DNA of 64,000 nucleotides from Betaproteobacteria bacterium (GCA_947474715.1 CANJJT010000004.1:33353-97352); one strand, 5' to 3'; numbered from the stretch's first letter, positions 2,931 to 29,891 are shown. Translations and numbers: made by a program. The notes: generated by a model from the sequence alone, not told the origin.

Positions 2931-3893
2931 ATGAAACGTCTGTCCCTGGCGGCGATTGCACTTTCGTTCGTCCTGTCCGGTCCGGTTGCAGCGCAGGAGT
3001 TCCCCAGTAGACCGATCACGCTCATGATGCCCTTTCAGGCCGGGGGCGTTGCCGATCTCTTTGGACGCCTCGTCTCAAGCAAAATGGGCAGTGTGCTCGG
3101 CACAAGCTTCATCGTCGTCAACAATGCCGGCGCCGGTGGAATCATCGGCGCCAAAATTGTTGCTGACGCGAAGCCCGACGGTTACACGATTCTCTACGCC
3201 ACGGATGCGGCGATGGTCAACCACCCGCTCGTGTCGAAGAATCCGCTGTATATCCCGGACAAGGCGTTTGCGCCTATCCATAGCCTGACGACCACACCGT
3301 GGATGTTCGCGGTTCGTCCCGATGCGCCATTCAAGACCTTCCGGGAGTTGGTCGAGTCCGCGCGAAAGAACCCCGGGAAGCTCACTTACTTCATCCTCGA
3401 CATCGGATCCTCGCATCATGTCATGGGGGAGCTTCTGCAGAAGGCGGCCGGCGTGAAGCTCACGCATGTTCCCTACAAGGGTGGGCCCCAGGGCTTTCAG
3501 GACTTCTTCGGTGGCCGGCTCGACCTGATGATGGACTATGCAAACACCTGGGCGCCGTTCGTGGCGGCCGGCAAGGCCATTCCGATCGGCGTGGCCTCGG
3601 CGGCGCGTCTGCCTGTCGCGCCGAACGTGCCGACCTTCGCGGAGCAGGGCTACGACGTCGCGTTCGGTCCGATCGGAGTGCTGGCTGCGCCGGTTGCGAC
3701 GCCCAAGGCCGTGATCGACAAACTCTCGGAGACGATGGCCCGGGTTCACAAGGATCCCGCGTTCGTGAAGTACTGCTTCGATCGAGGCTCGGTGCAGCTG
3801 ATGTATGGCCCTGCCGAGACGAAAGCATTCCTCGAGCAGCGGACCACAAGGATGAAGCAGCTGTTCGATGAGTTGGGCATCAAGCCGGAATGA
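2931..3893 (+). CDS. Bug/TctC tripartite tricarboxylate transporter solute-binding protein
   Basis: Signal peptide, FPSRPITLMMPFQAGG, PDGYT and HVPYKGG motifs. Confidence 0.92.
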   Translation: MKRLSLAAIALSFVLSGPVAAQEFPSRPITLMMPFQAGGVADLFGRLVSSKMGSVLGTSFIVVNNAGAGGIIGAKIVADAKPDGYTILYATDAAMVNHPLVSKNPLYIPDKAFAPIHSLTTTPWMFAVRPDAPFKTFRELVESARKNPGKLTYFILDIGSSHHVMGELLQKAAGVKLTHVPYKGGPQGFQDFFGGRLDLMMDYANTWAPFVAAGKAIPIGVASAARLPVAPNVPTFAEQGYDVAFGPIGVLAAPVATPKAVIDKLSETMARVHKDPAFVKYCFDRGSVQLMYGPAETKAFLEQRTTRMKQLFDELGIKPE

Positions 3894-3931
3894 AGTCGAC
3901 AGGAACCGGCGCGCACATCCAAGGAGAGATC

Positions 3932-4924
3932 ATGAAGTACACCCTGCGTGCCCTGACCGCCACTGCCTTGCTGGCGTCCACCCTCCTGCCATCCGCCGCG
4001 GCCTTCGCGCAAGGCAGCGCAGACGCCTGGCCCTCGCGGCCGGTCACCATGATTGTGGCGCTCGCCCCCGGTGCCGCGGTGGACATCGAGACACGCCTGT
4101 ATGCCAATGAGCTGTCGAAGAACATGAACCGCAGCTTCCTGGTGGATTACAAGCCTGGCGCGGGCAGCACCATCGGCCTCGCCCATGTCGCCAAGTCGGC
4201 GCCCGACGGCTATACGCTGTTGTCCATGACCGCCTCCGCTTCCATCGCGAAGATGGCTTATCCCAACTTGAGCGTCGATCCCCTCAAGGACCTCGCTCCC
4301 GTCTCGCTCATGTCCATGCGGCCCATCGTCTTCGTGGTGAACCCCGCGCTGCCGGTGAAATCGCTCAAGGAATTCATCGCCTACGCCAGGGCGAATCCCA
4401 TGAAGGTGAATGCCGGCACCGCCGGCGCGGGTGGTCTCGCCGAACTGGGCTGGGGCTGGTTCAACAGCCTCACCGACACCAAGGTGACCCTGGTGCACTA
4501 CAAGGGCGGCGGCCCGGCGCTCAAGGCGGTGCTGGCGGGCGAAGTGGACATCATTTTCGGCGGCCTCGCTGTCTCGATACCGCAGGTCAAGGCAGGCAAG
4601 CTGCGGGCGCTGGGCACCTCCATGCTGGAGCGCTCGAAACTTACGCCCGACCTGCCCACCGCAGCCGAGCAGGGACTTCCCGGCTTCAACTATTTCCAGT
4701 GGCTGGGCATCGCAGCGCCGGCCGCCACGCCGCAGCCGATCATCGTCCGCCTCAATGCTGAACTGGCCAAGGTGGCCAAGTCCGCGGAGGTGCAGCGCAA
4801 GCTCGAAGACGATGGCACCATCCTGGTGGGCACCAGCCCGGAGCGCTTCCGCCAGATTTACGAGGAAGAATCCGCCCGGCTGCGCAAGGTGGCCAAAGAC
4901 ATCAACATGAAGTTCACCGAGTAG
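3932..4924 (+). CDS. Bug/TctC solute-binding protein
   Basis: WPSRPVT, APDGYT and VHYKGG motifs. AAGGAG RBS before ATG 3932. Confidence 0.92.
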   Translation: MKYTLRALTATALLASTLLPSAAAFAQGSADAWPSRPVTMIVALAPGAAVDIETRLYANELSKNMNRSFLVDYKPGAGSTIGLAHVAKSAPDGYTLLSMTASASIAKMAYPNLSVDPLKDLAPVSLMSMRPIVFVVNPALPVKSLKEFIAYARANPMKVNAGTAGAGGLAELGWGWFNSLTDTKVTLVHYKGGGPALKAVLAGEVDIIFGGLAVSIPQVKAGKLRALGTSMLERSKLTPDLPTAAEQGLPGFNYFQWLGIAAPAATPQPIIVRLNAELAKVAKSAEVQRKLEDDGTILVGTSPERFRQIYEEESARLRKVAKDINMKFTE

Positions 4925-6213: not shown

Positions 6214-6295
6214 TCAGCAAGGTTTGAAGTGTCATGTGGCGAGGGCATCATTGTCCGATGATGGCCACAATGATCCTGGGGGTACCGGTCCGGCG

Positions 6296-7144
6296 ATGGC
6301 GGATGGCGCGCGGACTGTCACAAGGCAGTTGCCGGTGATGCCGGGGGTCTCACCCTTTGCGGCCTCCGGCCCGGGCCATCGGACCCTGATGGCCATGCTG
6401 GCGTTCATCAGCCTTGTGCTGGTTGCATCACTGCTGCTCGGGCAGGCGGCCATTGCGATCTACGTGCTGGGATTCTGGCACTACTACCTCTACGGGCTTG
6501 CCTATCGTTACGGCAAGGTGCCGCTGGCGCTATTCAAGCGCGATGCCGTGCTGATGAAGTCGGTCGCGCTGGCCGCCCTGGGGGTGGCCTATTTTTCCTG
6601 TCCGCCGGACTGGCTGTCCCTGGCCGTGATGGCTGCAGGCTTCGGCCTGAACGCGCTGGCTGCCCGGGTGCTGGGGGTGGACCGCACCTACTATGGTCAC
6701 GAGGTGGCCGGACTGCCGCACCGGCGCATCAGCGCATTTCCCTACTCGCAGGTCGGGCACCCCATGCTGGTGGGCAACATGGCCGCCTATGCCGGGACCA
6801 TGATCAATGACTCGTTCCGCGAGCAATGGTGGCCGCTCGCCAGCATGCATGTGGTTTTCAACCTGGCGCTGCTCGCGATGGAGATGCGCGTGAAGCCGCT
6901 GCACGGCGCCGGCGCCGCCCCCGCATCCGCGACGGGCACGCCTGCGGCGCTGGCCGGCCTGGGTGCTGCGGGGGCGATGGCAGGTGCGGCGGTGGCATTT
7001 GTCTACCTGGGCGATGACCGCAGGGCACTGGCCGGCGCCTTGCTGGGTGCAGGCATTGTCATATTTGCGCGGGTAATCTATGGCTTTTACTCTGGGGCGG
7101 TACCTGGCACCGGTGGCCGGCTTCAGGGCAGGGAGGCGCAATGA
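6296..7144 (+). CDS. Membrane protein with PEMT/PEM2-like phospholipid methyltransferase domain (start uncertain)
   Basis: LGVDRTYYG...AFPYS..HPMLVG resembles the PEMT/ICMT-clan signature. Multiple transmembrane helices. Confidence 0.6.
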   Translation: MADGARTVTRQLPVMPGVSPFAASGPGHRTLMAMLAFISLVLVASLLLGQAAIAIYVLGFWHYYLYGLAYRYGKVPLALFKRDAVLMKSVALAALGVAYFSCPPDWLSLAVMAAGFGLNALAARVLGVDRTYYGHEVAGLPHRRISAFPYSQVGHPMLVGNMAAYAGTMINDSFREQWWPLASMHVVFNLALLAMEMRVKPLHGAGAAPASATGTPAALAGLGAAGAMAGAAVAFVYLGDDRRALAGALLGAGIVIFARVIYGFYSGAVPGTGGRLQGREAQ

Positions 7145-7998
7145 GCGACGCAGCACAGCTGGGAACACAGGGCAAGGGCGGCATGCCGACCGGGCAGGGC
7201 CAACGCGCCACACGGCTGTTCCCCGTGCAGGTGGGGCGGTTTGACGATGCGGTCGCGCGCAGCCTCATCGACGAACTGGCGAACTGGGTCGTGGCGCGTT
7301 ACCGCGAGGACCTCACGCAGCGCCCTTCAAAGCATGTCTATATCCGCCTGTTGCCTGAAGAAGTGGTCCGCAAGATCGACCGCATCCGCGACAACGCCGT
7401 CATCTGCGAAGCCATGCTGCGGCACTTCGGCCCGGACCATGTCATCACCCCGATGAAGCACACCGACGAGCTTTACCTATCCCACTACAACAAGGACCGC
7501 GGCGGCGACCAGGGCCTGTTCGACAAGCACTACGATGGCAACCTGCGCTTCCTGTCCTTTGGCACCGTGGTGCGTTCGCTGATCTACCTGCAGTCCGATG
7601 CCACCTACAAGGTGGTGTTTGCCCACAGTGGTGTGGAGAAGGCCTTCGTCACCTATGACTTCGGGCTGCTCGACTTTCACCGGGAACTGCACTGGGTCGA
7701 GGGCGAATACAGCAGTGATGGCCAGCAGCGCATCCTGCTCAAGTGCAATTACCTCGTCGCTCCGCGCGACGCCGGCCTGATGAAGTCGCTCGTGATAGGG
7801 GCGAATACCGGGGTCTTTTACCTGGTCAAAGCGGCCATGGAATACTCCAAGAGCCCGCGGAACCCGGCGCAGCGTTTCGTGGGCCTGCTGTGCAACGTGT
7901 TTCGCCTGCTCAACAACATTCACCCCTTTGTGCCGCTGATTGTCACGGCGGCGGTGCTGGGCGGTGTCGGCTGGGGCCTGATTCATTGGCTTGGCTAG
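7141..7998 (+). CDS. Hypothetical protein, possible Fe-dependent double-stranded beta-helix oxygenase with C-terminal membrane anchor
   Basis: ATGA overlap with the upstream gene, H-Y-D motif plus distal H (DFHRELH), hydrophobic C-terminus. Confidence 0.55.
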   Translation: MSDAAQLGTQGKGGMPTGQGQRATRLFPVQVGRFDDAVARSLIDELANWVVARYREDLTQRPSKHVYIRLLPEEVVRKIDRIRDNAVICEAMLRHFGPDHVITPMKHTDELYLSHYNKDRGGDQGLFDKHYDGNLRFLSFGTVVRSLIYLQSDATYKVVFAHSGVEKAFVTYDFGLLDFHRELHWVEGEYSSDGQQRILLKCNYLVAPRDAGLMKSLVIGANTGVFYLVKAAMEYSKSPRNPAQRFVGLLCNVFRLLNNIHPFVPLIVTAAVLGGVGWGLIHWLG

Positions 7999-8314
7999 CA
8001 GGGTGTTGAAGATGGAGGGCACGCTCTGCCTCGCCCCCAACGGCCGGATTGGCGGAATCCTATCCCAGTACGTATGATCATAATATTATTGCAAGCCCAA
8101 TGAAGAAAACAGAGACCATCTGTAAATGATCATATCAATCCGGCCAGAGGCTTGCGCCCTGCCGCACCCGCCTTGCCTGCCGCTCCGGCTGGATTTTACT
8201 TTCGCTTAATATCCGCCTGTGGCTGCCATCGACGACCGTCAATGGCAGCCACGCGACCGGACCTGCCGCCCCGAGCGGACAGCAAGAATCCCGGCGAACC
8301 AACCAGGAGGCGAC

Positions 8315-9298
8315 ATGAACAAAGCCGTTCTGAACAGGCTGGCCGGTGGCGTATGGCTGCTGGCGCTGTGCGGTGGTCCGGCCCAAGCAGCCGACCAGGC
8401 GCCCGGCTATCCCTCGCGCAATGTGCGCATGGTGATTCCTTTCGTGCCCGGCGGCTCGTCCGATGTGATCGGCCGCATCGTGGCGCAAAAGCTCACCGAA
8501 GCCTGGGGCCAGCAGGTGATCGTGGACAACCGCGGCGGCGGCGGCACGGTCATCGGCACCGAGATCGTGGCCAGGGCCAATCCGGATGGCCACACCATCC
8601 TGCTCTCCACGCCGTCTTTCACCGTGAATGCGACTGGCGTGCGCAAGCTGCCCTACGACCCGGCCAAGGATTTCTCGCCCATCATCCTGTTCGGCTTCGC
8701 GCCGATGATGATCATCGCCACGCCATCTTTTCCGCCGCGGACCATCAAGGAACTGGTGGCCTATGCCAAGGCCAATGAAGGCAAGGTCACTTTCGGCTCG
8801 GCCGGCAACGGCAGCATCAACCAGATGGGCCTGGAGTTGATCAAGCTGCAGGGCGCGCCCATGACGCATGTGCCCTACAAGGGCGCCGCACCGGCCATGA
8901 CCGATGTGGCGGGCGGCCAGATCAACCTGCTGCTCACCGCCGCGGGTGCCGCGCTGCCGCTGGTGAAGGCGGGCAAGCTGAAGGCGATTGCCGTCACCAG
9001 CCTGCAGCGCATCCCGCTGGCGCCAGACATCCCGGCCGTCTCGGAAACCTTCCCCGGCTACGAAGTGGTGAACTGGTACGGCTTCCAGGCGCCCGGCGCT
9101 ACATCACCTGCCATCGTGGCGAAGATCAACACCGACATGATGCGCCTGCTCAAGGACGCCGACGTGCTGGACCGCATTGCTCGCGAGAGCAGCCTGCCCG
9201 GGGGCAGCACGCCCGAGCAGTTCCGCACTTTCCTGCAGAACGAGATCGTGAAGTGGACGCGGGTGATCAAGGAAACCGGCGCCACCGTGGACCAGTGA
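8315..9298 (+). CDS. Bug/TctC solute-binding protein
   Basis: YPSRNVRMVIPFVPGG and HVPYKGAA motifs. AGGAGG RBS. Confidence 0.92.
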   Translation: MNKAVLNRLAGGVWLLALCGGPAQAADQAPGYPSRNVRMVIPFVPGGSSDVIGRIVAQKLTEAWGQQVIVDNRGGGGTVIGTEIVARANPDGHTILLSTPSFTVNATGVRKLPYDPAKDFSPIILFGFAPMMIIATPSFPPRTIKELVAYAKANEGKVTFGSAGNGSINQMGLELIKLQGAPMTHVPYKGAAPAMTDVAGGQINLLLTAAGAALPLVKAGKLKAIAVTSLQRIPLAPDIPAVSETFPGYEVVNWYGFQAPGATSPAIVAKINTDMMRLLKDADVLDRIARESSLPGGSTPEQFRTFLQNEIVKWTRVIKETGATVDQ

Positions 9299-9428
9299 GG
9301 GCACGCAGTCGAGCGGAGAAGGCCAATGCTGATTCACACAGCTGCCCCACACGAAATGAGCCATTTTGATTCGACACACGCAGATTTGAGCGAAGCCACT
9401 TCGCCGAGAATCCATTGAAACCAATTAT

Positions 9429-9502
9429 CGTTATTCCCGCGAAGGCGGGAATCCATGGTTCGAAGGCAGCAAGAATGGATCCCCGCCTGCGCGGGAATGA
9501 CG
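9429..9502. repeat. REP-like palindromic doublet
   Basis: CGTTATTCCCGCGAAGGCGGGAATCCAT (9429-9456) and an inverted copy ATGGATCCCCGCCTGCGCGGGAATGACG (9475-9502). Each arm forms its own hairpin. Confidence 0.85.
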
Positions 9503-9559
9503 GCAGGGGCGTTTTCACCATGCATTCCATGAAGCCACCCACTCCCACGGAGGACTGAC

Positions 9560-11293
9560 ATGAACAACGACGGATACTTCGAAGCCTACTGGCCGCGCGC
9601 GCCGCGCCAGCAGAAACGCAAGGGGCTCGCGCCGCGCCTCGACACCCTGGAAGGCAAGACGGTGGCGCAGCTGTGGGACTTCCTCTTCAAGGGCGACCAG
9701 GTGTTCGCGCTGCTGGAGGAGGGCCTCAAGGCACGTTACCCCGGCATCAAGTTCGTCAGCTGGCAGACCTTCGGCAACACCCACCACAGCGACGAGAAGA
9801 AGCTGGTGGCCGAACTGCCCAAGCGCCTGCGCGAGCTGGGCGTGGACGCCGTCATCTCCGGGATGGCGTGTTGAGGCAGCTGCACGCCCGCCGTGTTGCG
9901 GGCGAGTGCAGCGTGCGAGGCAGCCGGGTTCCCCACGGCTTCCCTCACCTGTGAAGGGTTCATCAAACAGGGCAAGGCCACGTCCATCGGTCTGGGCTTT
10001 CCCGACATCCGCCTGGCGCTGGTGCCCGGCCACATCGGCAACAAGAACAATGACGTCCTGCGCCGCGACATCCTGGCGGTGACCCTGGATGCCGTGATCG
10101 ACAACCTCACCAGCAGCACCGGCACGGGCGAGAGCCTGTCCGACGAGCCGGCCGAGCGGGCCATCGTGGTGAAGGGCGGCTTCAACGAGGTGAACCGCTA
10201 CTTCACCGAGCATGAATACTCCGACGGCCTGCCGGTGGTGCCACCGACGAAGGAAGCGATCGACGCCTTCCTCGCCTACAGCGTACGCCCGTCCGAGGAG
10301 GTGCTGGGCGTGATGCTGCCCGACCGGCGCGCCGCCACCGTCTGGAGCGTGGCGGTGAATGGCGTCATGGCCGGCTGCCGGCCCGAGTACATGCCCGTCC
10401 TCGTCGCGCTGGTGGAAGCCATGTGCGACGAGCGCTACGGCGTGGAGCACAGCGGCAACACCCCCGGCGCCGACACCCTCATCATCCTCAACGGGCCGAT
10501 CGGCAAGCAACTGGGCTTCAACAACGGCCAGGGCGTGCTGCGCGACGGCTTTCTCGCCAACACCTCGGTGGGCCGCTTCTGGCGGCTGTATTCGCGCAAT
10601 GTCGCCGGCTTCCTGCCGGGCAAGACCGACAAGGCCACCTTCGGCAACACCTTCCGCGTGGTCATGCCCGAGAATGACGAGGTGCTGGCGGCCATCGGCT
10701 GGCCGACCATCGCCGAGGAAGTGGGCTTCAAGGCGGGCGACAACGTGGTCACCGTGGCGCGCTACACCGCCGGGGGCACCATGTCCTCGGTCACCGGCTC
10801 CACGCCCGAGGAAATGCTGCCCTACGTCGCCGATTCGGTGATGCGCTTCACCAACTGGCAGCTCATCTTCACCACCAGCCAGGGCGGCGGCACGCTGCGC
10901 CCGCTGGTGGTCATCACGCCCATCATCGCCGAGACCATCGCGCGCGCCGGCTGGAGCAAGGCGCGCGTGCAGCAGTACCTGTACGAGCATGCGCGCATGC
11001 CGGCACATGCCTTCGAGCGGCAATTGCGCGACTGGAACATCCGCCCGGTGTGGGAGCTGAAGGAGGAAGTGCGCCTGGGCAATCTGCCCAAGGCCTTCCA
11101 TGAGTCCGACGACCCCAACCGCCTGGTGCCCATCGTGGTCAACCCGGAGGACTTCATGATCGCCGTGAGCGGCGACCCCATGCGCAACAACGCCTACATC
11201 TTCGCCCACAACGGCTTCCTCGGTTACCCCACGGGGAAGCAGATCCAACTGCCCGCCGATTGGGACCAGCGGCTGGCTGAGCGTGTGGTGTAG
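9560..11293 (+). CDS. Putative selenoprotein: UGSC-type domain (Sec at codon 105, C-U-G-S-C) fused to an unknown C-terminal domain; 577 aa with readthrough
   Basis: ORFs 9560-9874 and 9893-11293 share a frame and are separated only by TGA 9872-9874. Readthrough gives VDAVISGMAC-U-GSCTPAVLRASAACEAAGFPT, followed by a SECIS-like hairpin. GGAGG RBS at the 9560 start. Confidence 0.85.
9875..9916 (+). promoter_or_regulatory. Bacterial SECIS-like stem-loop
   Basis: GCTGCAC (9879-85) pairs with GTGCAGC (9906-12) and GCCCGC (9886-91) with GCGGGC (9898-903). Loop CGUGUU starts 17 nt after the UGA with G-U at loop positions 2-3. Confidence 0.8.
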
Positions 11294-11295
11294 CG

Positions 11296-11346
11296 AGGAT
11301 CAGAAACGGCAATGTCGATGGCGCAGTCATTGTTGGATATCATTGA
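11296..11346 (+). pseudogene. Remnant 3' end of a HigB-type toxin gene
   Basis: Translates RIRNGNVDGAVIVGYH*, resembling the HigB C-terminal pattern (..DG.A.DVEIVDYH*), and ends 6 nt before the higA start. Confidence 0.5.
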
Positions 11347-11352
11347 CCAGTC

Positions 11353-11655
11353 ATGGTCATAATCAAGAACGGATTGCCTGCCATCCATCCCGGGGAATTC
11401 CTGCGCGAAATCCTCGAGGAGCAGTGTCTGTCGCAGGCGCAGTTTGCGCGCGCCATCGGCATGGCGCCGATGCGTATCTCGCATGTGGTCAAGGGGGCAC
11501 GGCCGGTGACGGCGGAACTGGCCCTTTTGTTTGGGCAGGCCTTTGGCCAGACTCCGCAGTACTGGCTCAACCTGCAGTCCACCTACGATCTGAAACTGGC
11601 GCAGAAGGCGATGGGCAAGCGTCTGCAGTCGGTGATGGCATTGCAGCCCGGATGA
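11353..11655 (+). CDS. higA: HigA-family antitoxin (Xre HTH)
   Basis: IHPGEFLREIL, RPVTAELAL and PQYWLNLQSTYDL motifs. Confidence 0.9.
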   Translation: MVIIKNGLPAIHPGEFLREILEEQCLSQAQFARAIGMAPMRISHVVKGARPVTAELALLFGQAFGQTPQYWLNLQSTYDLKLAQKAMGKRLQSVMALQPG

Positions 11656-11775
11656 ATTGAATCTCTACCCGGCATCGTCATCGGCGAACCGGGGTCTTGA
11701 CATAAAACACCAGCTGGATTGCGGCAGCAAACGACGCGATACCGGCATCAGGGACAGCAACAGGAGGAAGGCCGC

Positions 11776-14007
11776 ATGAGCAGTACTGCACTGGAGAACA
11801 TCCGCGTCATCGACTTTGGCCAGTACATGGCCGGCCCCATGGCGGGGATGTTTCTTGGCGATTTCGGCGCCGATGTCATCCGCGTGGAGCGCCCCGGCGG
11901 GCCGGTGTATGACACCCCGGCCAATGCCACCTGGAACCGCAACAAGCGCAGCATCACCCTGGACCTGAACCAAGCCGAAGACCTGGCCGTGGCGCGGGAT
12001 CTGGTGGCGCATGCCGATGTGGTGATCGAGAACTTCCGCCCCGACATGATGGCGAAGTGGGGTCTGGACTGGGAGACGGTGCGCAAGTCCAATCCGGGCC
12101 TCGTCTATTGTTCCATCAAGGGCTTTGCCGCCACCGACCCGCGTTACCGTTTGAAGGCCACCGAGGACATCGTCGCCGCCGCCGCCGGCATCCATGCGCC
12201 CACGCCGATCTCCGGCATCAAGCATCCGGTGTACACGGCGATTCCGCTGTGCTCCATGTACGGGGCGCACTGGGCGGCCGTGTCCATCAGCATGGCGCTG
12301 CATGCGCGCGAGCACTCCGGCACCGGCCAGTTCATCGAAGTGCCGCTCTTCGGCGTGGTGCTCACCGCCTTCAGCGGCAAGCTGATGCGCGTGGGCGATG
12401 CGCCCGAGCCCGAGCCGCGCGCCTCCGGCCGTTACGCCATGTGCCAGGACGGCCACTGGCTGATGTACTTCCCCAAGAGCATCGGCAACAAGCCCGCGCT
12501 CATCGAGGAGATGGGCATGCCCTGGTACAAGGACACCATGGAGGAGCCCGAGCGCGAGCGGCGCGCCGCCGTGGTGTTCGCCACACAGCCCGCCGAGTAC
12601 TGGTCCGACGCCTTCGCGCGCCACGGCATCGAGGGCGTGGTGTGCAACCACCCGCGGGACTGGGTGCGCCATCACCTCGCGCGCGACACGAAGGCGGTCG
12701 AGGAATTCAATGACCCGGTGCTGGGGCGCTTTGTCGGGCCGGGCATCAACCCGCGCCTGTCGGAAACCCCGGGCGCGGTGCGCTCACCGCGGCCGCTGCC
12801 CGATCAGCATGGCGCGGCCATACGCAGCGAGATGAAGGCCTGGGCGAAACCGAAGGCACGCCCGGTGCATCCCATCCTCGGTGCCCTGCAGGGCATCAAG
12901 GTGGTGGACATGGGCATCGTGCTGGCCAGCCCCAGTTGCGGGCGCACCCTGGCCGAGTTCGGCGCCAACCTCATCAAGGTGGACAGCCCGGCGCGCAACC
13001 CGGTGAGCTGGCACAACGACATCAACCGCGGCAAGCGCAGCATCCTGCTTGACCTGAAGCACCCGCGCGGCAAGGCCATCTTCTGGAAACTGCTGGAAGA
13101 CGCCGATGTGGTGCTGGAGAACTTCCGCGCCGGCGTGGCCGAGAAAATCGGCTTCGGCTACGAGGCCATCCGCGCGCGCAACCCCGGCATCATCTATTCC
13201 TCGGTGAATGCCTACGGCCAGGGCGGCACCTACACCATGCGCCCGGGGCGCGAGCCGCTGTCGCAGGCCATCAGCGGCATGCAGATGCGCTATGGCGGGG
13301 ACAGGCCTGCCATGAACAACTTCATCGCCGGTGACTACGCCACGGGCCTGGTGAACGCCTTCGGCATCGCCTGTGCACTGATGCACCGGAAGAAAACCGG
13401 CAAGGGGCAGAAGATCAGCGCGGGGCTCATCTACGCCTCCACTCTGCTGCAATCGGCCCTGCTGCAGGATTACGAAGGCAAGCAGTGGAATGAAGCCAGC
13501 GGCCTGGAAGTGCTGGGTACTGCACCCTGGTCACGCGCCTACCAGGCGAAGGACGGCTGGCTCTTCATCGACGGCAAGCGGGAACAGGCGATCCGCCTCG
13601 TTCAGGGCAGCAACGCCATGGATGAAAGCGCACTCGAAGCCGCTTTGGAAAAGCATTTCGCCGCACTGGACCTGGCCACCAGCCTGCAGCAGCTGGACAA
13701 GGCCGGCATCCCCGCGCACCGCATGGTCATGAACCTGCCCTCGCTCAACCTCGACCCCATCGTGCGCGCCGAAGGTTACTGCGTCACCCGCGAACACGAA
13801 GGCATGGGCCCGGTCACCACCATAGGCACTGTCGTCAAACTCAGCCAGACCCCCGTCACCCCCGGCACCCCCGCCTCCAAACCCGGCGCCGACGCGAGAA
13901 GCATCCTCGCCGACATCGGCATGGAAGCCGAGTTCGAGGACCTGCTGAAAGAATGCATCATCGTCAACGAAGGCGTGGTGCCTGGCGGGAGTTCGTTCGG
14001 GAATTAA
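11776..14007 (+). CDS. Tandem two-domain family III (CaiB/BaiF) CoA-transferase
   Basis: Two repeats of the NRxKRSIxLDL and ADVVxENFR motifs. AGGAGG RBS. Confidence 0.88.
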   Translation: MSSTALENIRVIDFGQYMAGPMAGMFLGDFGADVIRVERPGGPVYDTPANATWNRNKRSITLDLNQAEDLAVARDLVAHADVVIENFRPDMMAKWGLDWETVRKSNPGLVYCSIKGFAATDPRYRLKATEDIVAAAAGIHAPTPISGIKHPVYTAIPLCSMYGAHWAAVSISMALHAREHSGTGQFIEVPLFGVVLTAFSGKLMRVGDAPEPEPRASGRYAMCQDGHWLMYFPKSIGNKPALIEEMGMPWYKDTMEEPERERRAAVVFATQPAEYWSDAFARHGIEGVVCNHPRDWVRHHLARDTKAVEEFNDPVLGRFVGPGINPRLSETPGAVRSPRPLPDQHGAAIRSEMKAWAKPKARPVHPILGALQGIKVVDMGIVLASPSCGRTLAEFGANLIKVDSPARNPVSWHNDINRGKRSILLDLKHPRGKAIFWKLLEDADVVLENFRAGVAEKIGFGYEAIRARNPGIIYSSVNAYGQGGTYTMRPGREPLSQAISGMQMRYGGDRPAMNNFIAGDYATGLVNAFGIACALMHRKKTGKGQKISAGLIYASTLLQSALLQDYEGKQWNEASGLEVLGTAPWSRAYQAKDGWLFIDGKREQAIRLVQGSNAMDESALEAALEKHFAALDLATSLQQLDKAGIPAHRMVMNLPSLNLDPIVRAEGYCVTREHEGMGPVTTIGTVVKLSQTPVTPGTPASKPGADARSILADIGMEAEFEDLLKECIIVNEGVVPGGSSFGN

Positions 14008-14172: not shown

Positions 14173-15222
14173 TCAGGCTGGCGCCGCCAATTCGATTTTC
14201 CGCGTGATGGGATTGGACGCCACGAAGGGCGGACAGAAGGTGGCGTGCAGGCCGCCCTTGCCGCCCGCCACCACCAGGCGCAGGTGATCGGGGCTGGGAA
14301 AGACCTTGGCCGTATCGCCCGAATTTCGACCTTCCTTACGGATGAAGTCGCGTTCCCAGGGAGGCAAGCGCTCCAGCGGAAAGCGGCTGGTGCGCTCGTA
14401 CAGTGCCTGGCGCACTTCGTCCTTGCTCATGCGGGCCCGCACACCGAGGATTTCGGCATGATCCGGATTGAGCAGCAGCCAGCCGAAGCCCTGGCCGTAG
14501 CGCAGCGTCTGCACTCCCGACCACTCCATGGCGCCTGCAAGGGTAATGAGCAGATCATCGGCTGTCTTGCTGGCCGTGTCCGAGGTGGCGGTGGTGCCGG
14601 TGACCGCGCCCAGGGTCACGGTGCTGTCCTCGGCCGAGAACCCCTGATCCACATGGTAGGGCGGCCAGGGACTGCGTTCCTCGAACTCACCGAAGCACAG
14701 GGTAAAGCGACCGGGTGAACCCTGGGTGGACATGGTGGTGCGCCCGGGAATGGAGCCGGCAATGTTGAGTTGCACCAAGCGTAGCGCCCGGCCGATGGTT
14801 GCATTGGCGCGCCAGCCTGGCCCGAGCATGCCAAAGCTGCAATTGAGGTCGAGTTGCCCTCGAATCGGCCCATTGACGACGCACATCAGTGCAACCGGGT
14901 TGGTCGTGGTGTTGATGGCGAGCAGGGGGAAAGCCGGATCGCCCATGATGGCGACGGCCGTGACCACCACCGGGAAATATTCCGGCCGGCATCCTGCCAT
15001 CACCGCGTTGACGGCGATGCGCTCCAGCGTCGCCTCGCCGTAGCGCGGCGCCAGTGTGGCGATGACTTCGGATGGGTCGCGCGGCACCGTGGCCAGCATC
15101 CGTTCCACGCGCTTGGGTGTCGGCGGCACCACCGGCAGGCCGTCGGTCCAGCCGTTGCTGTCCATGAAATCGAGGAAGTTGTCGAAATCCTCGTCAACAA
15201 GGACACGGTCTGTCTTATTCAC
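14173..15222 (-). CDS. Uncharacterised partner protein of the UGSC selenoprotein (paralog of the C-terminal domain of 9560-11293)
   Basis: Shares DGLPVVPPT, AVNxVMAGCRPEY, NGPI and ANxxxGR with the fused gene. Its GTG start overlaps the upstream stop (GTGA) with a GGAGG RBS. Confidence 0.88.
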   Translation of the reverse strand: MNKTDRVLVDEDFDNFLDFMDSNGWTDGLPVVPPTPKRVERMLATVPRDPSEVIATLAPRYGEATLERIAVNAVMAGCRPEYFPVVVTAVAIMGDPAFPLLAINTTTNPVALMCVVNGPIRGQLDLNCSFGMLGPGWRANATIGRALRLVQLNIAGSIPGRTTMSTQGSPGRFTLCFGEFEERSPWPPYHVDQGFSAEDSTVTLGAVTGTTATSDTASKTADDLLITLAGAMEWSGVQTLRYGQGFGWLLLNPDHAEILGVRARMSKDEVRQALYERTSRFPLERLPPWERDFIRKEGRNSGDTAKVFPSPDHLRLVVAGGKGGLHATFCPPFVASNPITRKIELAAPA

Positions 15223-15782
15223 TCATCCTCCAGGGAAATGGGTCGAGCAGGGTCGCGGCGATCCGTTCCCAGCATTCGTGTAAGCAACTCGGGAAACTTG
15301 TCCCGGGCGAACTGGCTCACGACGTCGGGACCGAGCGTCTCGAATGGATGGGCGACCACCACCATGGGCAGGTCAGGAAAGCCGCGCGTCTTGGCCAGGC
15401 TTTTTGCGATGGAGACAAACGCTTCGGTGACGAAAACCACCACTGGAACGCCGCGCTTTTCCAGTTCGGTGCTGTGGGCGACAACTGCCGCCGTGCACCC
15501 CCCTCAGGCGCCCAACCCGACGATGGCTGTGTCGATTTCCGCTGCGAGTCTGTCCAGCGTCGCCTTCGGTAGCAGGCCGCGACGAGGGAGATTGGGCACA
15601 CGCCTGGTGGCGCCCACTTCATGTTGCTTGAGTTGTTGCTCGATGCCGTCCAGAAAAGTGTCGTAGCTGCTCCAGTCGTTGTCGAGCAGTCCGATCACCT
15701 TGTCCTGCAGGGTGGTGATGCGCTGTGACACTGGGGTTGCCCTGCCGCCATCAGGGGCCACCGGGACGATGATTTCGTACAT
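15219..15782 (-). CDS. Putative stand-alone UGSC-type selenoprotein (Sec at codon 93, U-G-G-C; 187 aa with readthrough)
   Basis: ORFs 15504-15782 and 15219-15443 share a frame. TGA readthrough gives IDTAIVGLGA-U-GGCTAAVVAHSTELEKRGVPVV, which aligns with the 9560 gene. Confidence 0.85.
15468..15503 (-). promoter_or_regulatory. Bacterial SECIS-like stem-loop
   Basis: Minus strand UGA-GGGG-GGUGC-AC-GGCGGC-AGUU-GUCGCC-CACA-GCACC. The loop starts 17 nt after the UGA with G-U at loop positions 2-3. Confidence 0.75.
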
Positions 15783-16000: not shown

Positions 16001-16963
16001 ATGCGTTTCCTGTGTCGACTTGCCGTGCTTGTCCTTGCCGTGGCCTTTGCAGGCCCGATTCAGGCGCAAACCTTTCCGTCCAAGCCGGTTCGCTTCATCA
16101 TCGGATTTACACCGGGTACCATCGTGGATGCCGTGGCGCGTCTGCTGGCCAACGAGCTGGAAAAACGCTTCGAGCAGCCCATCGTCCTGGAGTTCAAGCC
16201 AGGTGCCAATGCCACTATCGCCGCCAAGTATGTGGTGGGTGCCCCCGCGGATGGTTACACACTGTTCTACGGCAATGTGATGAGCATCAATCCCCTTTTC
16301 ATGGCGAGCAATGCTGTGGATGCGGGCAAGGACCTGGCGTCGGTGTCGCGTATCGCAACGGCACCTTATTTCATGTATGCCAGCGGCCGTATCCCGGTGA
16401 AGACTCTGCAGGAACTGGTAAGCCATGCCCGGGCCAACCCCGATTCGCTCACCTACGGCACCACCTCGCAGACCTTCGACCTGTTCATGCAGATGCTCAA
16501 GGATCGCACCGGGATCACCGCGCGCGGCATACCCTACAAGGTGTCCACCCAGATCACCCAGGCCATGATGGCCGGGGAACTGGACCTGTCCATTACTTCC
16601 AATGTGCAGTCGAATCTGGCAGGTATACGGAACGGCCGCATCAAGCCGCTGTTCGTGACCGGCGCCAGGCGCTCCCCGCTGCTGCCCAATGTGCAAACGG
16701 CAGGCGAAGTGGGCATCAGTGATTTCGAGCTCTCCATCAATTTTGGCCTGTGGGCGCCGGTGGGCACACCGCGCCCGGTCATCGAGCGCCTGAGCCACAC
16801 CAGCGTGACTAGCCTGGCGCCGCCTGAAGTGGCAAATAACATCCTCGCCAAAGCTGCAGCCGAGGCGGTGGGCTCCACCCCCGAAGAGCAAATGAAGGTG
16901 TTCGAAGCCGAAGTGCGGCTGTGGTCGGATGCAGCGCGCCGGGGCAATTTCAAGCCGCAATGA
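16001..16963 (+). CDS. Bug/TctC solute-binding protein (divergent)
   Basis: FPSKPVRFIIGFTPG, PADGYT and IPYK motifs. AAGGAGG RBS. Confidence 0.88.
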   Translation: MRFLCRLAVLVLAVAFAGPIQAQTFPSKPVRFIIGFTPGTIVDAVARLLANELEKRFEQPIVLEFKPGANATIAAKYVVGAPADGYTLFYGNVMSINPLFMASNAVDAGKDLASVSRIATAPYFMYASGRIPVKTLQELVSHARANPDSLTYGTTSQTFDLFMQMLKDRTGITARGIPYKVSTQITQAMMAGELDLSITSNVQSNLAGIRNGRIKPLFVTGARRSPLLPNVQTAGEVGISDFELSINFGLWAPVGTPRPVIERLSHTSVTSLAPPEVANNILAKAAAEAVGSTPEEQMKVFEAEVRLWSDAARRGNFKPQ

Positions 16964-17128: not shown

Positions 17129-17821
17129 GTGAAGGGCCAGTCGATCATGATAGCCGTGCTCTTCGGACTGTCCATCCTCACCGCCCCAGCCCACCCCCAG
17201 GTCCCCCCATCCCCTGCCGAAAAAGCCGCCTACACCGGCCTGCACGGTGCCGCCGCCCGCGGTGACGCTGCACAGATCAAGGCGCTTGCCACCAAAGGCG
17301 CCCCCATCGACGCCCGTGATGCCCGCGGCCGCACGCCCCTGCACGTGGCTGCACACGGCGGCGCACACAACGCCCTGCGCGCACTCGCCGCCGCCGGTGC
17401 CAACCCCAACACCCTGGAGAACGACCGCTACGACATCGTCACCATCGCCGCCGTCGCCAACGACGTGCCCACCCTGCAACTCGCACTCGAACTGGGCTGC
17501 AGCGCGAAGAACATCACCAGCCGCTGGGACGGCACCGCCCTCATCGCGGCTGCGCACCTGGGCCACGCCGAGGTCGTGCGCACCCTCATCCAGGCCGGTG
17601 CACCGCTGGACCACGTCAACAACCTGGGCTGGACGGCCGTTATCGAATCCATCGTGCTGGGCGACGGCGGCGTACGCCACACTGAGACCTTGCGCGCCCT
17701 GGTGCAGGCCGGCGCGAACATCAATCTGGCTGACAGGAACCGGCAGACGCCGCTCGCGCTGGCGCGGGCAAAGGGCTATACCAATATGGTGAAGCTGCTG
17801 CAGGAGGCGGCGGCGAGGTAG
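17129..17821 (+). CDS. Exported ankyrin-repeat protein
   Basis: Signal peptide and repeats GRTPLHVAA, GTALIAAAHLGH, GWTAVIE and QTPLALA. Confidence 0.88.
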   Translation: MKGQSIMIAVLFGLSILTAPAHPQVPPSPAEKAAYTGLHGAAARGDAAQIKALATKGAPIDARDARGRTPLHVAAHGGAHNALRALAAAGANPNTLENDRYDIVTIAAVANDVPTLQLALELGCSAKNITSRWDGTALIAAAHLGHAEVVRTLIQAGAPLDHVNNLGWTAVIESIVLGDGGVRHTETLRALVQAGANINLADRNRQTPLALARAKGYTNMVKLLQEAAAR

Positions 17822-20153: not shown

Positions 20154-21122
20154 TCAGTCGTCCGCCCTGATGCCGTGGGCTTTGGTGATGGCGGCCCACT
20201 TGGCCACTTCCTTGCGAGTGGCTTCGGCAAACTGCTCCGGGGTGTTGGCCACGGGTATGGCACCGACTGCAGCCAGCCGTTCCACCGATTCCGGGGAGCG
20301 GATGATCTTTACCAGTTCCGCGTGCAGCCTGTCGATGATGGGCCGGGGTGTGGCAGCAGGGGCGAGCAGGCCGTAGAACGAACTCGACTCGAAACCTGAA
20401 AAGCCGGATTCATTGAACGTAGGCAGGTCGGGCAGCAGTGGCAGGCGGGTGGACCAGGCTACGCCGATGGGGCGCAGCTTTCCAGACCGGATCTGCGAGA
20501 GAAAGACGCCCGTATTGGCAAACAGCAGATGTGTCTCTCCGGCCAGCATGGCGGTCACGGCAGGCCCTGCGCCCTTGTAGGGGACGTGGGTCACCTTGGT
20601 GCCGACTTCCTGGGCAAACATCACCAGTGCCAGGTGGCCGCCGGAGCCATTGCCCGAAGAGGCCCAGCTGATTTTTCCGGGATTGGCCCTGGCGTAGGCG
20701 ACCAGTTCCTGGATGGTTCTGGGCGCAAACGATGGATGTGCAACCAGCACGTTGGGCACCGTCACGAAATTCGTCACCGGTGCGTAGTCCTTGACCGGAT
20801 CGTAGGGCAGCTTGTCGTACAGCAGGGTAGGGAAAAGGTGGGTGTTGGTGCTGCCCACCAGCATGGTGTATCCGTCCGCGGGAGATTTCGCCACGGCCTC
20901 GGCGGCCACCAGCCCGCCGCCACCGCCGCGATTCTCATAAAGGATCTGCTGGCCCAGTACATCGCCCAGCTTCTGGGCGATCGGCCGCGCGATCACGTCC
21001 GTTCCGCCGCCTGGGGCAAATGGAATGATCCAGCGTATGGGCTTGTTCGGATAAGCTCCCTGGGACAAGGCGACATTGTGAAGCGCCAACGACAGCAGTA
21101 CCACGGTGAGTCTGCGAAGCAT
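20154..21122 (-). CDS. Bug/TctC solute-binding protein
   Basis: YPNKPIRWIIPFAPGGGTD and HVPYKGAG motifs. Confidence 0.93.
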   Translation of the reverse strand: MLRRLTVVLLSLALHNVALSQGAYPNKPIRWIIPFAPGGGTDVIARPIAQKLGDVLGQQILYENRGGGGGLVAAEAVAKSPADGYTMLVGSTNTHLFPTLLYDKLPYDPVKDYAPVTNFVTVPNVLVAHPSFAPRTIQELVAYARANPGKISWASSGNGSGGHLALVMFAQEVGTKVTHVPYKGAGPAVTAMLAGETHLLFANTGVFLSQIRSGKLRPIGVAWSTRLPLLPDLPTFNESGFSGFESSSFYGLLAPAATPRPIIDRLHAELVKIIRSPESVERLAAVGAIPVANTPEQFAEATRKEVAKWAAITKAHGIRADD

Positions 21123-26003: not shown

Positions 26004-26140
26004 AAATGGTCATCATGGCATGATGAATCGGAGCGCACTTGTGCGTCCGTATGTCTGGTGCAGTGCAATAAACGGGTGTTAAACTGAACCCACAATCTTT
26101 CCTGAAATTCAACGCGATCCACTCTTTATTGATGGCTGGC

Positions 26141-27850
26141 ATGAATCCGATTCCTCCCTCGCCGTCAGCAATGTCCGCACAGGCACTCATGGAGAATTTC
26201 TTCAAGAGTCTTGCCGCGAGCGGGGATCCGAAGGTTCTGGAAGCCCTGCAGTCGGTCGGAAAGCCGTCCCCCGAAACGCTGAACAAGCTGGCGGAATTGC
26301 AATGGCAGTATTCCGCCGAGCACGTGAAGTTATGGGCGTCGCTGTTCGGCGGCGGCATGGTGCTTCCCGCTGGCGGCAGTCCGGAGGACCGGCGCTTTTC
26401 TGCGCCGGAATGGAAGCTGTCGCCGTTTCATGATTACGTGCGCCAAAGCTATCTGCTCAACGCCCGCTTCATCATCGATGCCATCGATGCGCTGGGCTTG
26501 AGTGAGCGCGACCGGGATCGCCTGCGTTTCGCTGCGCGTCAGATGACCGATGCGGTAAGTCCGGCGAATTTTGCCGCGACCAATCCCGAAGCGCTCAAGC
26601 TGGCTGTGGAAACACAGGGCGCCAGTCTGGTGGGCGGGATGCGCAACTTTCTGGAAGACGTGCAGAAGGGCCGCATATCGACCACGGACGATTCGGCATT
26701 CGAGGTGGGGCGGAATATCGCGACCACCGCGGGTGCCGTGGTCTATCGCAATGAGCTGATCGAGATCATCCAGTATCAGCCCCTCTCGGATGAGGTCCAT
26801 GCCAGGCCGCTGATCATCGTGCCGCCCTGCATCAACAAGTTCTACATCCTCGACCTGCAGCCGGATAACTCGCTGGTCCGTCATGCCGTGGAACAGGGCC
26901 ATCCCGTTTTCATGGTGTCCTGGCGCAACATCGGCCAGGAACAATCAGGCCTCACCTGGGATGATTACATCGACAAGGGCATCATCCAGGCGCTGGCGGC
27001 GGTACGGGATATCTCCGGGGCGAAGAAGATCAATGCACTGGGTTTCTGCATCGGTGGAACCTTGCTGGCATCCGCGCTTGCGGTGCTCTCCGCGCGCAAG
27101 CAGGAATGGGTCACGAGCCTGACCCTGCTGGCCTCCATGCTGGATTTTTCCGATACCGGCGAAATCGGGCTGTTCGTCGATGAGGCCGGTGTGGCGGCAC
27201 GAGAGGCGGCCATCGGGCAGGGCGGCATCATGCCGGGCAAGGAACTGGCGGTGGTGTTTTCCTCACTGCGCGCCAATGACCTGGTCTGGCCCTATGTGGT
27301 GAACAACTATCTCAAGGGTAACAGCCCCCCGGCCTTTGATCTGCTGTACTGGAACGCCGACTCCACCAATCTTCCCGGCCCCATGTATTGCACGTATATC
27401 CGCAACACCTATCTGCGCAATGCCCTGCGCGAACCCGGGCAACTGCAGATGCTCGGTGAGACGGTCGATCTCGGACGCCTGCGCATGCCGGCGTATCTGG
27501 TGGCGACGCGCGAAGACCACATCGTGCCCTGGGAGAGCGCCTATCTTTCCACCTCGCTGCTCAAGGGGCCCATGCGATTCGTGCTGGGTGCGAGCGGACA
27601 CATTGCCGGCATCATCAATCCGGCCTCCAGGAATCGCCGCAGCTATTGGACCGGGGAGGCCCTGCCTGCCGATCCCACGGCGTGGCTCAGTCAGGCCGTG
27701 GAGCATCCTGGTAGCTGGTGGACCGACTGGATCAACTGGCTTGCCACGCATGGCGGGCGCAAGGTCAAGGCGAAGAAGCAACTGGGTGGCGGGGGGCACA
27801 AGGCGATGGAGCCGGCACCTGGCTTGTATGTAAAGGAACAGGCGGCCTGA
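26141..27850 (+). CDS. phaC: Class I PHA synthase
   Basis: [12 protein letters not shown], lipase box GFCIGG, DLLYWN, EDHIVPW, SGHIAG and GSWW motifs. Confidence 0.96.
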
Positions 27851-27899
27851 CAGCTTTCCGCTCCGGGAAGCCGGCTGGCCGCATGAAAAGGAGAAGTAC

Positions 27900-29078
27900 A
27901 TGACGGATGTCGTGATCGTTGCCGCCGGCCGGACGGCCATCGGTAAATTTGGCGGGGCCCTGGCCCATGTGTCGGCAGCGGACCTGGGCGCGCACGTGAT
28001 CCGCAGCCTGATGGCGAAGACCGGCCTCAAGGGCGAGCAGGTGTCTGAAGTGATCATGGGCCAGGTGCTGGCTGCAGGCACCGGGCAGAACGGCGCCCGT
28101 CAGGCAGCCCTCAAGGCCGGTCTGCCCGACAGGGTGCCGGCCATGACCATCAACAAGGTCTGCGGCTCCGGGCTCAAGGCGACCCACCTCGCGGCCCAGG
28201 CCATCCAGTGTGGTGATGCGGAAATCATCATTGCCGGGGGGCAGGAGAGCATGAGCCTGGCACCCCATGTGTTGCCCAATTTCAGGGATGGTTTTCGCAT
28301 GGGCGATGCCAAGCTGGTGGATTCAATGGTTGTCGATGGCCTGTGGGACATTTTCAACAACTACCACATGGGTGTAACGGCGGAGAACGTCGCTCGGCAG
28401 TTCCAGATATCCCGGACCGAACAGGACGAGTTTGCGGCGGCCAGCCAGCAGAAGGCCGAGGCTGCGCAGAAAGCCGGGCGCTTCCAAAATGAAATCCTGC
28501 CGCTGGAGATTCCCCAGCGCAAAGGGCCGCCGAAAGTTTTTGATATGGATGAGTACCCCAAGCACGGCACCACTGCCGAAACGCTGTCGGGATTGCGGGC
28601 TGCCTTCGACAAGGCGGGCACAGTCACCGCCGGCAATGCATCCGGGATCAACGACGGCGCTGCCGCGGTCATCATGATGTCGGCAGCCAAGGCCGAAGAA
28701 CTGGGATTGAAACCGCTGGCGAAGGTCAAAGCCTACGCGTCGGCCGGACTGGATCCCAAGATCATGGGCATGGGCCCGGTCCCTGCCTCCCAGCGCTGCC
28801 TGGCGCGGGCTGGCTGGAAGCACTCGGACCTGGACCTCATGGAAATCAATGAGGCCTTTGCTGCCCAGGCGATCGCCGTCAACAAGCAGATGGGCTGGGA
28901 TACCGGGCGTATCAATGTCAACGGCGGCGCCATTGCGCTGGGCCACCCTATAGGCGCCTCCGGGTGCAGGGTACTGGTGACGCTGTTGCATGAAATGCAG
29001 CGGCGTGACGCCAGGCGCGGCCTCGCATCGCTGTGCATAGGCGGCGGCATGGGTGTGGCACTGGCAGTGGAGCGCTGA
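27900..29078 (+). CDS. phaA: Acetyl-CoA acetyltransferase (beta-ketothiolase)
   Basis: [19 protein letters not shown] and CIGGG motifs. Confidence 0.96.
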
Positions 29079-29144
29079 AGCCAGGCGGGAAGGGGGCGCC
29101 ACCGTTACCGGTGGCGAACGGTAACCAGCGTGAACGGATAAGCA

Positions 29145-29891
29145 ATGACACTGGCGGGACGAGTGGCTCTTGTGACCGGGGGTATGGGTGGAATCGGCAC
29201 GGCGATCTGCAGGAGACTGGCTCAATCGGGGCTGCGGGTGGCGGCGGGATGTCCGAGGGATTATCCGAAGCGCGAGGAGTGGCTGGCGGCGATGCGGGGG
29301 GAAGGTTTCGACATGCATGCAGCCGAAGGCAATGTGGATGAGTTCCAGTCCTGCGTGGACATGATCGCCGCCGTGCGAACCAGTCTTGGTGAAGTCGATG
29401 TGCTGGTCAACAATGCCGGAATCACGCGCGATGGCCTGCTCCGGCGCATGAGCGCGGAAGACTGGATGGCTGTGATCAATACCAACCTGAATTCGGTTTT
29501 CAATGTCAGTCGCCAGGTGGTGGAGGGCATGGGTAGCCGCGGCTGGGGGCGCATCATCAATATCTCCTCGGTCAATGCGCTTCGCGGGCAGTTCGGCCAG
29601 ACCAACTATTCGGCAGCCAAGGCGGGCATGCATGGATTTTCCAAGGCCCTGGCGCAGGAACTTGTGGCCAAGGGCGTTACGGTAAACACGGTCTCTCCCG
29701 GATATGTGGCGACCGATATGGTCAAGGCGATGCCGCCGCATGTTCTGGAGCAGGTTACACGGGAGATACCCATGGGCAGGCTGGCCCGGCCGGAGGAGAT
29801 TGCCGGCCTGGTGAACTACCTGGTTTCGGAGGAATCGGCATACATTACAGGCGCCAACATCACCATCAACGGTGGCCTGTACATGGCTTAG
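29145..29891 (+). CDS. phaB: Acetoacetyl-CoA reductase
   Basis: TGGMGGIG, NAGITRD and GQFGQTNYSAAKAG motifs. Confidence 0.93.
   Translation: MTLAGRVALVTGGMGGIGTAICRRLAQSGLRVAAGCPRDYPKREEWLAAMRGEGFDMHAAEGNVDEFQSCVDMIAAVRTSLGEVDVLVNNAGITRDGLLRRMSAEDWMAVINTNLNSVFNVSRQVVEGMGSRGWGRIINISSVNALRGQFGQTNYSAAKAGMHGFSKALAQELVAKGVTVNTVSPGYVATDMVKAMPPHVLEQVTREIPMGRLARPEEIAGLVNYLVSEESAYITGANITINGGLYMA

Follow-up and report, generated by a model that had tools for sequence, protein, structure and literature searches.

Proteins containing a UGSC motif were counted by Zhang and Gladyshev in 2008 (PMC2398784) among the commonest aquatic selenoproteins, with 255 selenocysteine (Sec) forms against 21 Cys forms. 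That paper also mentions a 'UGSC/Unknown_1 fusion' and guesses at a thioredoxin-like fold for the UGSC protein, and its Table 2 gives the motif of PrdB as UxxC. In a 2016 survey of more than 5200 genomes the entry for UGSC gives 26 and 33, presumably organisms and genes, and reviews of 2022 and 2026 describe the function of the family as uncharacterised. Within the literature covered here, whose scope excludes most subscription journals, there was no report of a UGSC function, of a TctC link or of a betaproteobacterial expansion.

Two further systems invite comparison. The GrdB, GrdF and GrdH subunits of glycine, sarcosine and betaine reductase, and PrdB of D-proline reductase, carry Sec in a U-x-x-C motif and act with a second, larger polypeptide partner. 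Mammalian thioredoxin reductase has a vicinal Cys-Sec redox centre, Gly-Cys-Sec-Gly.

Here we analysed a locus in a 64,000-nucleotide stretch of DNA from a Betaproteobacteria bacterium (GCA_947474715.1, CANJJT010000004.1:33353-97352), referred to below as the window. Translated with TGA as Sec (U), positions 9560-11293 of the plus strand form a frame of 577 codons closed by a TAG stop at 11291-11293, before which the TGA at 9872-9874 is the sole in-frame stop. Codon 104 is TGT (Cys, 9869-9871), codon 105 is the TGA, and GGC AGC TGC (Gly-Ser-Cys108) follows. The features of the locus are these:

8219-9298, plus strand: TctC/Bug-family solute receptor gene, ending 261 nt 5' of the ATG (Pfam TctC, E 1.3e-61)
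9549-9553, plus strand: ribosome-binding site GGAGG, 6 nt 5' of the ATG, read from the sequence
9560-9562, plus strand: ATG start of the selenoprotein gene, from the sequence
9560-11293, plus strand: predicted selenoprotein gene, UGSC domain and partner domain in fusion (translation with TGA as U, Pfam, AF2 model)
9587-10111, plus strand: UGSC domain, residues 10-184 (Pfam), with a predicted Rossmann/flavodoxin-like alpha/beta fold
9869-9883, plus strand: redox motif Cys104-Sec105-Gly-Ser-Cys108 (TGT TGA GGC AGC TGC), Sec codon at 9872-9874
9876-9916, plus strand: SECIS-like hairpin, core stem 9880-9911, apical loop CGUGUU at 9892-9897
10145-11290, plus strand: partner domain, residues 196-577, without a Pfam family, Cys273 codon at 10376-10378
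14173-15782, minus strand: second copy in the window, unfused, with its UGSC gene running from 15782 to 15219 and its partner gene from 15222 to 14173

Our best explanation of the whole, to which we give a probability of about 0.9, is that this is one gene for a two-domain selenoprotein of 577 residues with a presumed enzymatic role. Ordinary table-11 calling breaks it at the TGA into 9560-9874 (104 aa) and 9893-11293 (466 aa, GTG start). An earlier note on this DNA had described that split, had pointed out that the frame continues to 11293 and that the downstream piece lacks an obvious ribosome-binding site, and had read the motif as GMAC-U-GSC, with one Cys directly before the Sec and another at +3; the sequence agrees on each point, and no GGAG-like motif lies in the 18 nt 5' of GTG 9893. 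An open frame is by itself weak evidence, because GC-rich DNA gives a 577-aa frame on the antisense strand too. That frame (9515-11248, minus strand), which lies directly opposite the selenoprotein gene, found no match in Pfam and is most likely a by-product of the high GC content. What lifts the observation above chance is that homology spans the TGA and that the same TGA column recurs in 41/41 paralogous domains of the genome.

The Pfam UGSC domain (PF24696) crosses the TGA with an E-value of 8e-28 and a score of 98.1 bits, the cut-off being 25, and residues 10-184 align to profile positions 3-171 of 172. Because one domain runs through the codon, the two halves are not separate proteins; separate initiation of the halves was one of the outcomes that the earlier note had named as speaking against its claim. 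All eight full-length database homologues have Cys at the Sec column. From a library of 1.84 billion proteins we drew 150 family representatives, 34 of which span that column, and 29 of these carry Cys; the other five (G, gap, R, S and T) have lost the +3 Cys as well. A further sign is that 42 of the 150 have their first residue immediately downstream of the UGA, where a gene call interrupted at a Sec codon would be expected to resume. In the organism's own genome, a tblastn search with the readthrough protein found 32 loci covering the column, every one with TGA, and an iterated HMM search of the six-frame translation raised the number of UGSC domains to 41, again with TGA at the motif in each. 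The seven external loci examined all have TGA there too, and matches in relatives carry '1 TGA'.

The genome also encodes the machinery for Sec insertion, namely tRNA-Sec, selB (394 bits), selA (579 bits) and selD (411 bits), the three protein families all scoring above their cut-offs. The selD gene (contig C26, 2950-3873) itself has one in-frame TGA and probably encodes a Sec-containing SelD. UGA has not been reassigned, since TGA is the ordinary stop of 10/17 Pfam-confirmed genes in the window. On these comparisons we take the gene to be a single unit with a predicted Sec codon, which ordinary calling splits. The central claim of the earlier note therefore stands, and so does its expectation for residue 105 in homologues. 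Its description of the gene as hidden holds for naive calling, which misses it; the family itself is known (PF24696, NF041046, PMC2398784), and NCBI names close homologues 'UGSC family (seleno)protein'.

A hairpin starts 4 nt 3' of the UGA. Over the 45 nt from the UGA it has a minimum free energy of -27.5 kcal/mol (z -2.76; 4 of 200 shuffled sequences fold as well), and it is the most stable of 1698 windows of 36 nt in the gene. We compared it across 23 sequences of the gene's own clade and its sister clade, 16 from this genome and seven from other genomes. Twelve pairs are retained in 18-23 of the 23, and the stem shows next to no variation at third codon positions, though the proteins share only 40-74% identity. 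Two of the sequences show a compensatory double change from G-C to A-U, counted as one event because the two are probably orthologues. In a second clade, whose motif is D-U-G-S-C-T-S-W, the hairpin stands equally far from the UGA but differs in sequence, with eight pairs kept in 13/13 members. GUGU occurs in the loops of both clades, some 22-26 nt from the U of UGA. An Rfam scan of 9000-12000 at E<=10 returned no SECIS family, its two chance matches being a miRNA and PtaRNA1. The GUGU loop presumably resembles the element of E. coli fdhF.

The Cys directly before the Sec sets this protein apart from most of its family. A tree built from all 41 UGSC domains in the genome groups the gene with 11 others in one clade (support 98/97); 11 of the 12 members read C-U-G-S-C and one S-U. 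The motif has A-U in the sister clade of four, and D-U, N-U or A-U in the remaining 25 domains. External loci at 59-74% identity divide into five with C-U and two with A-U. Across the family at large, Cys at -1 occurs in one of the 34 representatives and in one of the eight full-length homologues (C-C-G-A-C). The earlier note had called the vicinal Cys unusual, which is right for the family; within the gene's own clade it is the usual state. Its observation that a paralogue has Ala before the Sec agrees with the second copy in the window, which reads GLGA-U-GGC with TGA at 15504-15506. From the alignments, then, C-U-G-S-C is a conserved trait of a clade and no one-off, and Cys104 is probably functional because it is conserved within that clade (11/12 in the genome and 5/7 outside it).

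The adjacent Cys-Sec pair recalls mammalian thioredoxin reductase, a resemblance that we treat as a lead only. The motif here is internal (residues 104-105 of 577) rather than C-terminal, the protein has no Pyr_redox or other flavoprotein domain, and the third Cys, at +3, belongs to the usual U-x-x-C pair of the UGSC family. Most paralogues of the clade read G-C-U-G, whereas this copy reads A-C-U-G.

An AF2 model of both domains, built from 86 aligned homologues, reached a pLDDT of 94.7 and a pTM of 0.94, and replaced an earlier model from nine sequences that was poor (pLDDT 52.5). In the model, C104-U105-G-S-C108 lies between a strand (97-103) and a helix (108-121). The N-terminal ~190 residues are predicted to adopt a Rossmann-like alpha/beta fold, not the thioredoxin-like fold guessed in 2008 (PMC2398784). 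Foldseek found no match to the model in the PDB at E<=0.001, and its weak rows for class I fumarate hydratase, FtsZ and MetH were given no weight (TM 0.15-0.19, rmsd 17-23 A). VIA-align, in a wide search and a second look, found only generic alpha/beta folds over residues ~27-190. The lists from these fold searches were filled by the N-terminal domain, so that they barely probe the fold of the partner domain.

The gene belongs to a known family, which a 2008 paper (PMC2398784) had already described together with the fusion to an unnamed domain. It shares with that family the Pfam match, a U-G-S-C motif with Sec at the family column, the fusion itself and the great excess of Sec over Cys forms reported there. 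It differs in having Cys directly before the Sec and in scoring 39.4 bits against the NCBIfam equivalog NF041046, whose cut-off is 125; because of that score we treat it as part of a divergent fused subfamily and file it under the Pfam family instead.

Among 86 family members, 62 match the NCBIfam UGSC_fam model at E<=0.01. The other recurrent NCBIfam matches are to PrdB (nine), GrdB (three), various_sel_PB (three), GrdH (two) and GrdF (one), the best of the selenoprotein-B matches having an E-value of 3.4e-7. The readthrough protein itself matches PrdB at E 8.6e-4, with 18.8 bits, which is far below the cut-off of 300. These matches suggest that the UGSC domain is a remote relative, and a remote one only, of the selenoprotein-B subunits of glycine and D-proline reductase (GrdB/PrdB). 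In both, Sec sits in U-x-x-C and the protein has a larger polypeptide partner. The differences are considerable, for the partner domain here, to be compared with a pyruvoyl-forming partner of PrdA/GrdE type, matches no Pfam family by sequence, the genomic context consists of TctC receptors rather than grd or prd operons, and the organism can probably respire oxygen and is no Stickland fermenter.

The partner domain (residues 196-577) presumably corresponds to the Unknown_1 of PMC2398784. Its near-invariant features include SDGLPxxPPT and Cys273, the latter within the motif AVNGVMAGCRPEY and retained in 82 of 85 aligned members; in the AF2 model Cys273 stands at the start of a helix (275-289). 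At E<=10, Pfam gave nothing for this domain but a chance match of 9.7 bits, and a sequence-profile search of the PDB gave none. The few degenerate members showed no clear tendency to lose Cys273 together with the U/C motif.

What surrounds these genes is dominated by TctC. Of the 41 UGSC units, 17 have a same-strand TctC gene no more than 150 bp away, 24 have one within 300 bp and 27 within 500 bp; random intervals give 1.7, 3.2 and 5.4%, respectively. The statistic is overstated, because the paralogues are not independent of one another. Mere nearness to TctC is to be expected, because 542 TctC loci fill 10.8% of the bases of the genome; examples in the window lie at 2931-3893, 3890-4924, 8219-9298, 16001-16963 and 20154-21122. 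All 15 other members of the gene's own clade and the sister clade have TctC in their neighbourhoods. By these counts the gene is one of 41 paralogues that usually stand beside TctC. The densest cluster seen is on contig C75, which in 20.2 kb holds five UGSC units and at least seven TctC genes.

Other neighbours vary, and include CoA-transferase III, MmgE/PrpD, amidohydrolase, 2-hydroxyacid dehydrogenase, LysR and a single TctA/TctB pair. Downstream of our gene, at 11719-14007 on the plus strand, is a 762-aa frame in which CoA-transferase family III is matched twice, apparently through tandem fusion; the genome has 98 such loci. CoA-transferase III was nevertheless rejected as a regular neighbour, being found within 1.5 kb of 3/41 units against 8% at random. 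A thioredoxin-reductase-like flavoprotein was rejected in the same way for this genome (1/41 units). The one case is on contig C27, at 6272-7225 (plus strand) of locus L024, where a gene for a 317-aa flavoprotein of this type shares 17 nt with the 3' end of a C-U-G-S-C paralogue.

The window holds other features of note. Between tctC and the selenoprotein gene, at 9430-9500, are REP-like palindromes, and a 20-mer from this stretch occurs 33 times in the genome. An ankyrin-repeat protein, of a kind uncommon in free-living bacteria, is encoded at 17129-17821 on the plus strand (Ank_2, E 8e-32). Genes for a PhaC-type PHA synthase, a thiolase and a short-chain reductase stand in a row at 26129-29891 on the plus strand and form a polyhydroxyalkanoate synthesis cluster.

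How the protein may work can be sketched as follows. SelB and tRNA-Sec would read the UGA at 9872-9874 as Sec with the aid of the hairpin just downstream, and the product would be a cytoplasmic selenoprotein of 577 residues in which the UGSC domain is joined to a partner domain bearing Cys273. U105 and C108 would cycle through a selenenylsulfide, recharged by cellular thiol reductants, while the clade-specific C104 may act as a further resolving residue or as a ligand; the earlier note had suggested for it an additional selenenylsulfide option or a metal site. It is tempting to speculate that the protein is a selenol- or thiol-dependent reductase, or a similar enzyme, acting on an organic acid imported through a tripartite tricarboxylate transport system, with the U105/C108 cycle at its centre and an additional role for C104. 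We hold this assignment of function to be possible, although the odds are against it in this specific form.

A different view of the same protein is that it turns over no substrate at all and is a redox sensor, a chaperone or a carrier of selenium or sulfur, its place beside TctC being a product of TctC density. The lack of any catalytic family match in the partner domain would fit such a role, as would the share of the genome that TctC genes occupy. So would the arrangement at contig C54, 3257-6832, where one fused paralogue immediately precedes selB in the same orientation, the two being ~90 bp apart. Yet same-strand TctC genes within 300 bp are about 18 times as frequent as at random (24/41 against 3.2%). 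Moreover, the 41 paralogues are well separated (in the tree, terminal branches have a median length of 0.48 changes per site), as is typical of substrate-specific enzymes, and the only kin that can be detected are catalytic, the selenoprotein-B subunits. We therefore consider a role without catalysis unlikely.

The way in which the two domains are joined bears on another possibility, that translation stops at UGA 9872 and restarts to give separate proteins of 104 and 466 aa. A partner domain lies within 600 bp of all 41 UGSC domains, fused in frame in 25 and in another frame in 16, and the two domains thus form an obligate pair. The second copy in the window is of the unfused kind. Its UGSC gene encodes 187 residues (Pfam UGSC, E 4.4e-38; motif A-U-G-G-C, Sec TGA 15504-15506; hairpin after the UGA with z -1.8) and its stop overlaps the start of the partner gene (GTGA), whose product matches residues 202-517 of the 577-residue protein. 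That the two domains are truly separate genes in 16/41 units might seem to favour a restart, and table-11 calling does find GTG 9893, while public gene calls list pieces of ~465 aa. But where separation is real, as in the second copy, it falls at the domain boundary near residue 190, whereas a break at residue 105 would cut through the middle of the UGSC domain (10-184). GTG 9893 also lacks the upstream motif expected of a start, and the Cys-type homologues are continuous over 573-592 aa. A restart thus seems very improbable, and one continuous selenoprotein is the reading that we retain. A pseudogene reading, with the TGA arising in a Cys-type gene by nonsense mutation or faulty assembly, has a negligible chance of being right, for although the genome is an incomplete draft and Cys forms of the family exist, TGA occupies the same column in 41/41 paralogous domains and 7/7 external loci, a conserved hairpin follows it, and no other defect of frame appears over 577 codons.

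The organism in which this selenoprotein gene has multiplied appears, from its genome, to be Burkholderiales-like. The assembly is a 4.72-Mb draft in 190 contigs and is ~82% complete. The genome has two haem-copper oxidase (COX1) genes, and since these are present the organism can probably respire oxygen. The source names of homologues are those of Burkholderiales or Betaproteobacteria MAGs. Within the same genus, UGSC with many TGA-bearing copies was present in 10/10 sampled genomes, at 1-37 matches each. In the same taxonomic family, none of the eight other genera sampled had UGSC, and among other families of the order it was found in one of 12 sampled, with 20 matches. For comparison, the largest whole bacterial selenoproteomes given in the reviews are those of Syntrophobacter fumaroxidans (39), an Olavius symbiont (at least 57) and a Methylomirabilota MAG (63), and the same accounts place selenoproteome richness mainly in anaerobes.

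This distribution leads us to a broader, and tentative, proposal. A genus of oxygen-respiring Burkholderiales-like bacteria may have multiplied a selenoenzyme of UGSC domain plus partner to about 40 diverged copies per genome, most with a TctC of their own, as a substrate-diversified set for imported organic acids. In such a set, the three-chalcogen centre of the C-U-G-S-C clade (Cys104, Sec105 and Cys108) would have a chemistry absent from the other members. We regard this picture as somewhat less probable than not.

A single further locus adds little to what was described for the family in 2008. What is added here is threefold: a Cys-Sec pair characteristic of one clade, a family grown to 41 copies in a single genome, and the linkage with TctC. 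The presence of a TctC receptor gene beside most copies offers a route, by way of the ligand of the receptor, to the substrate of a family for which none is known. If our proposal is true, these bacteria would possess one of the largest bacterial selenoproteomes known, built from one family and lying outside the anaerobes in which such richness is expected.
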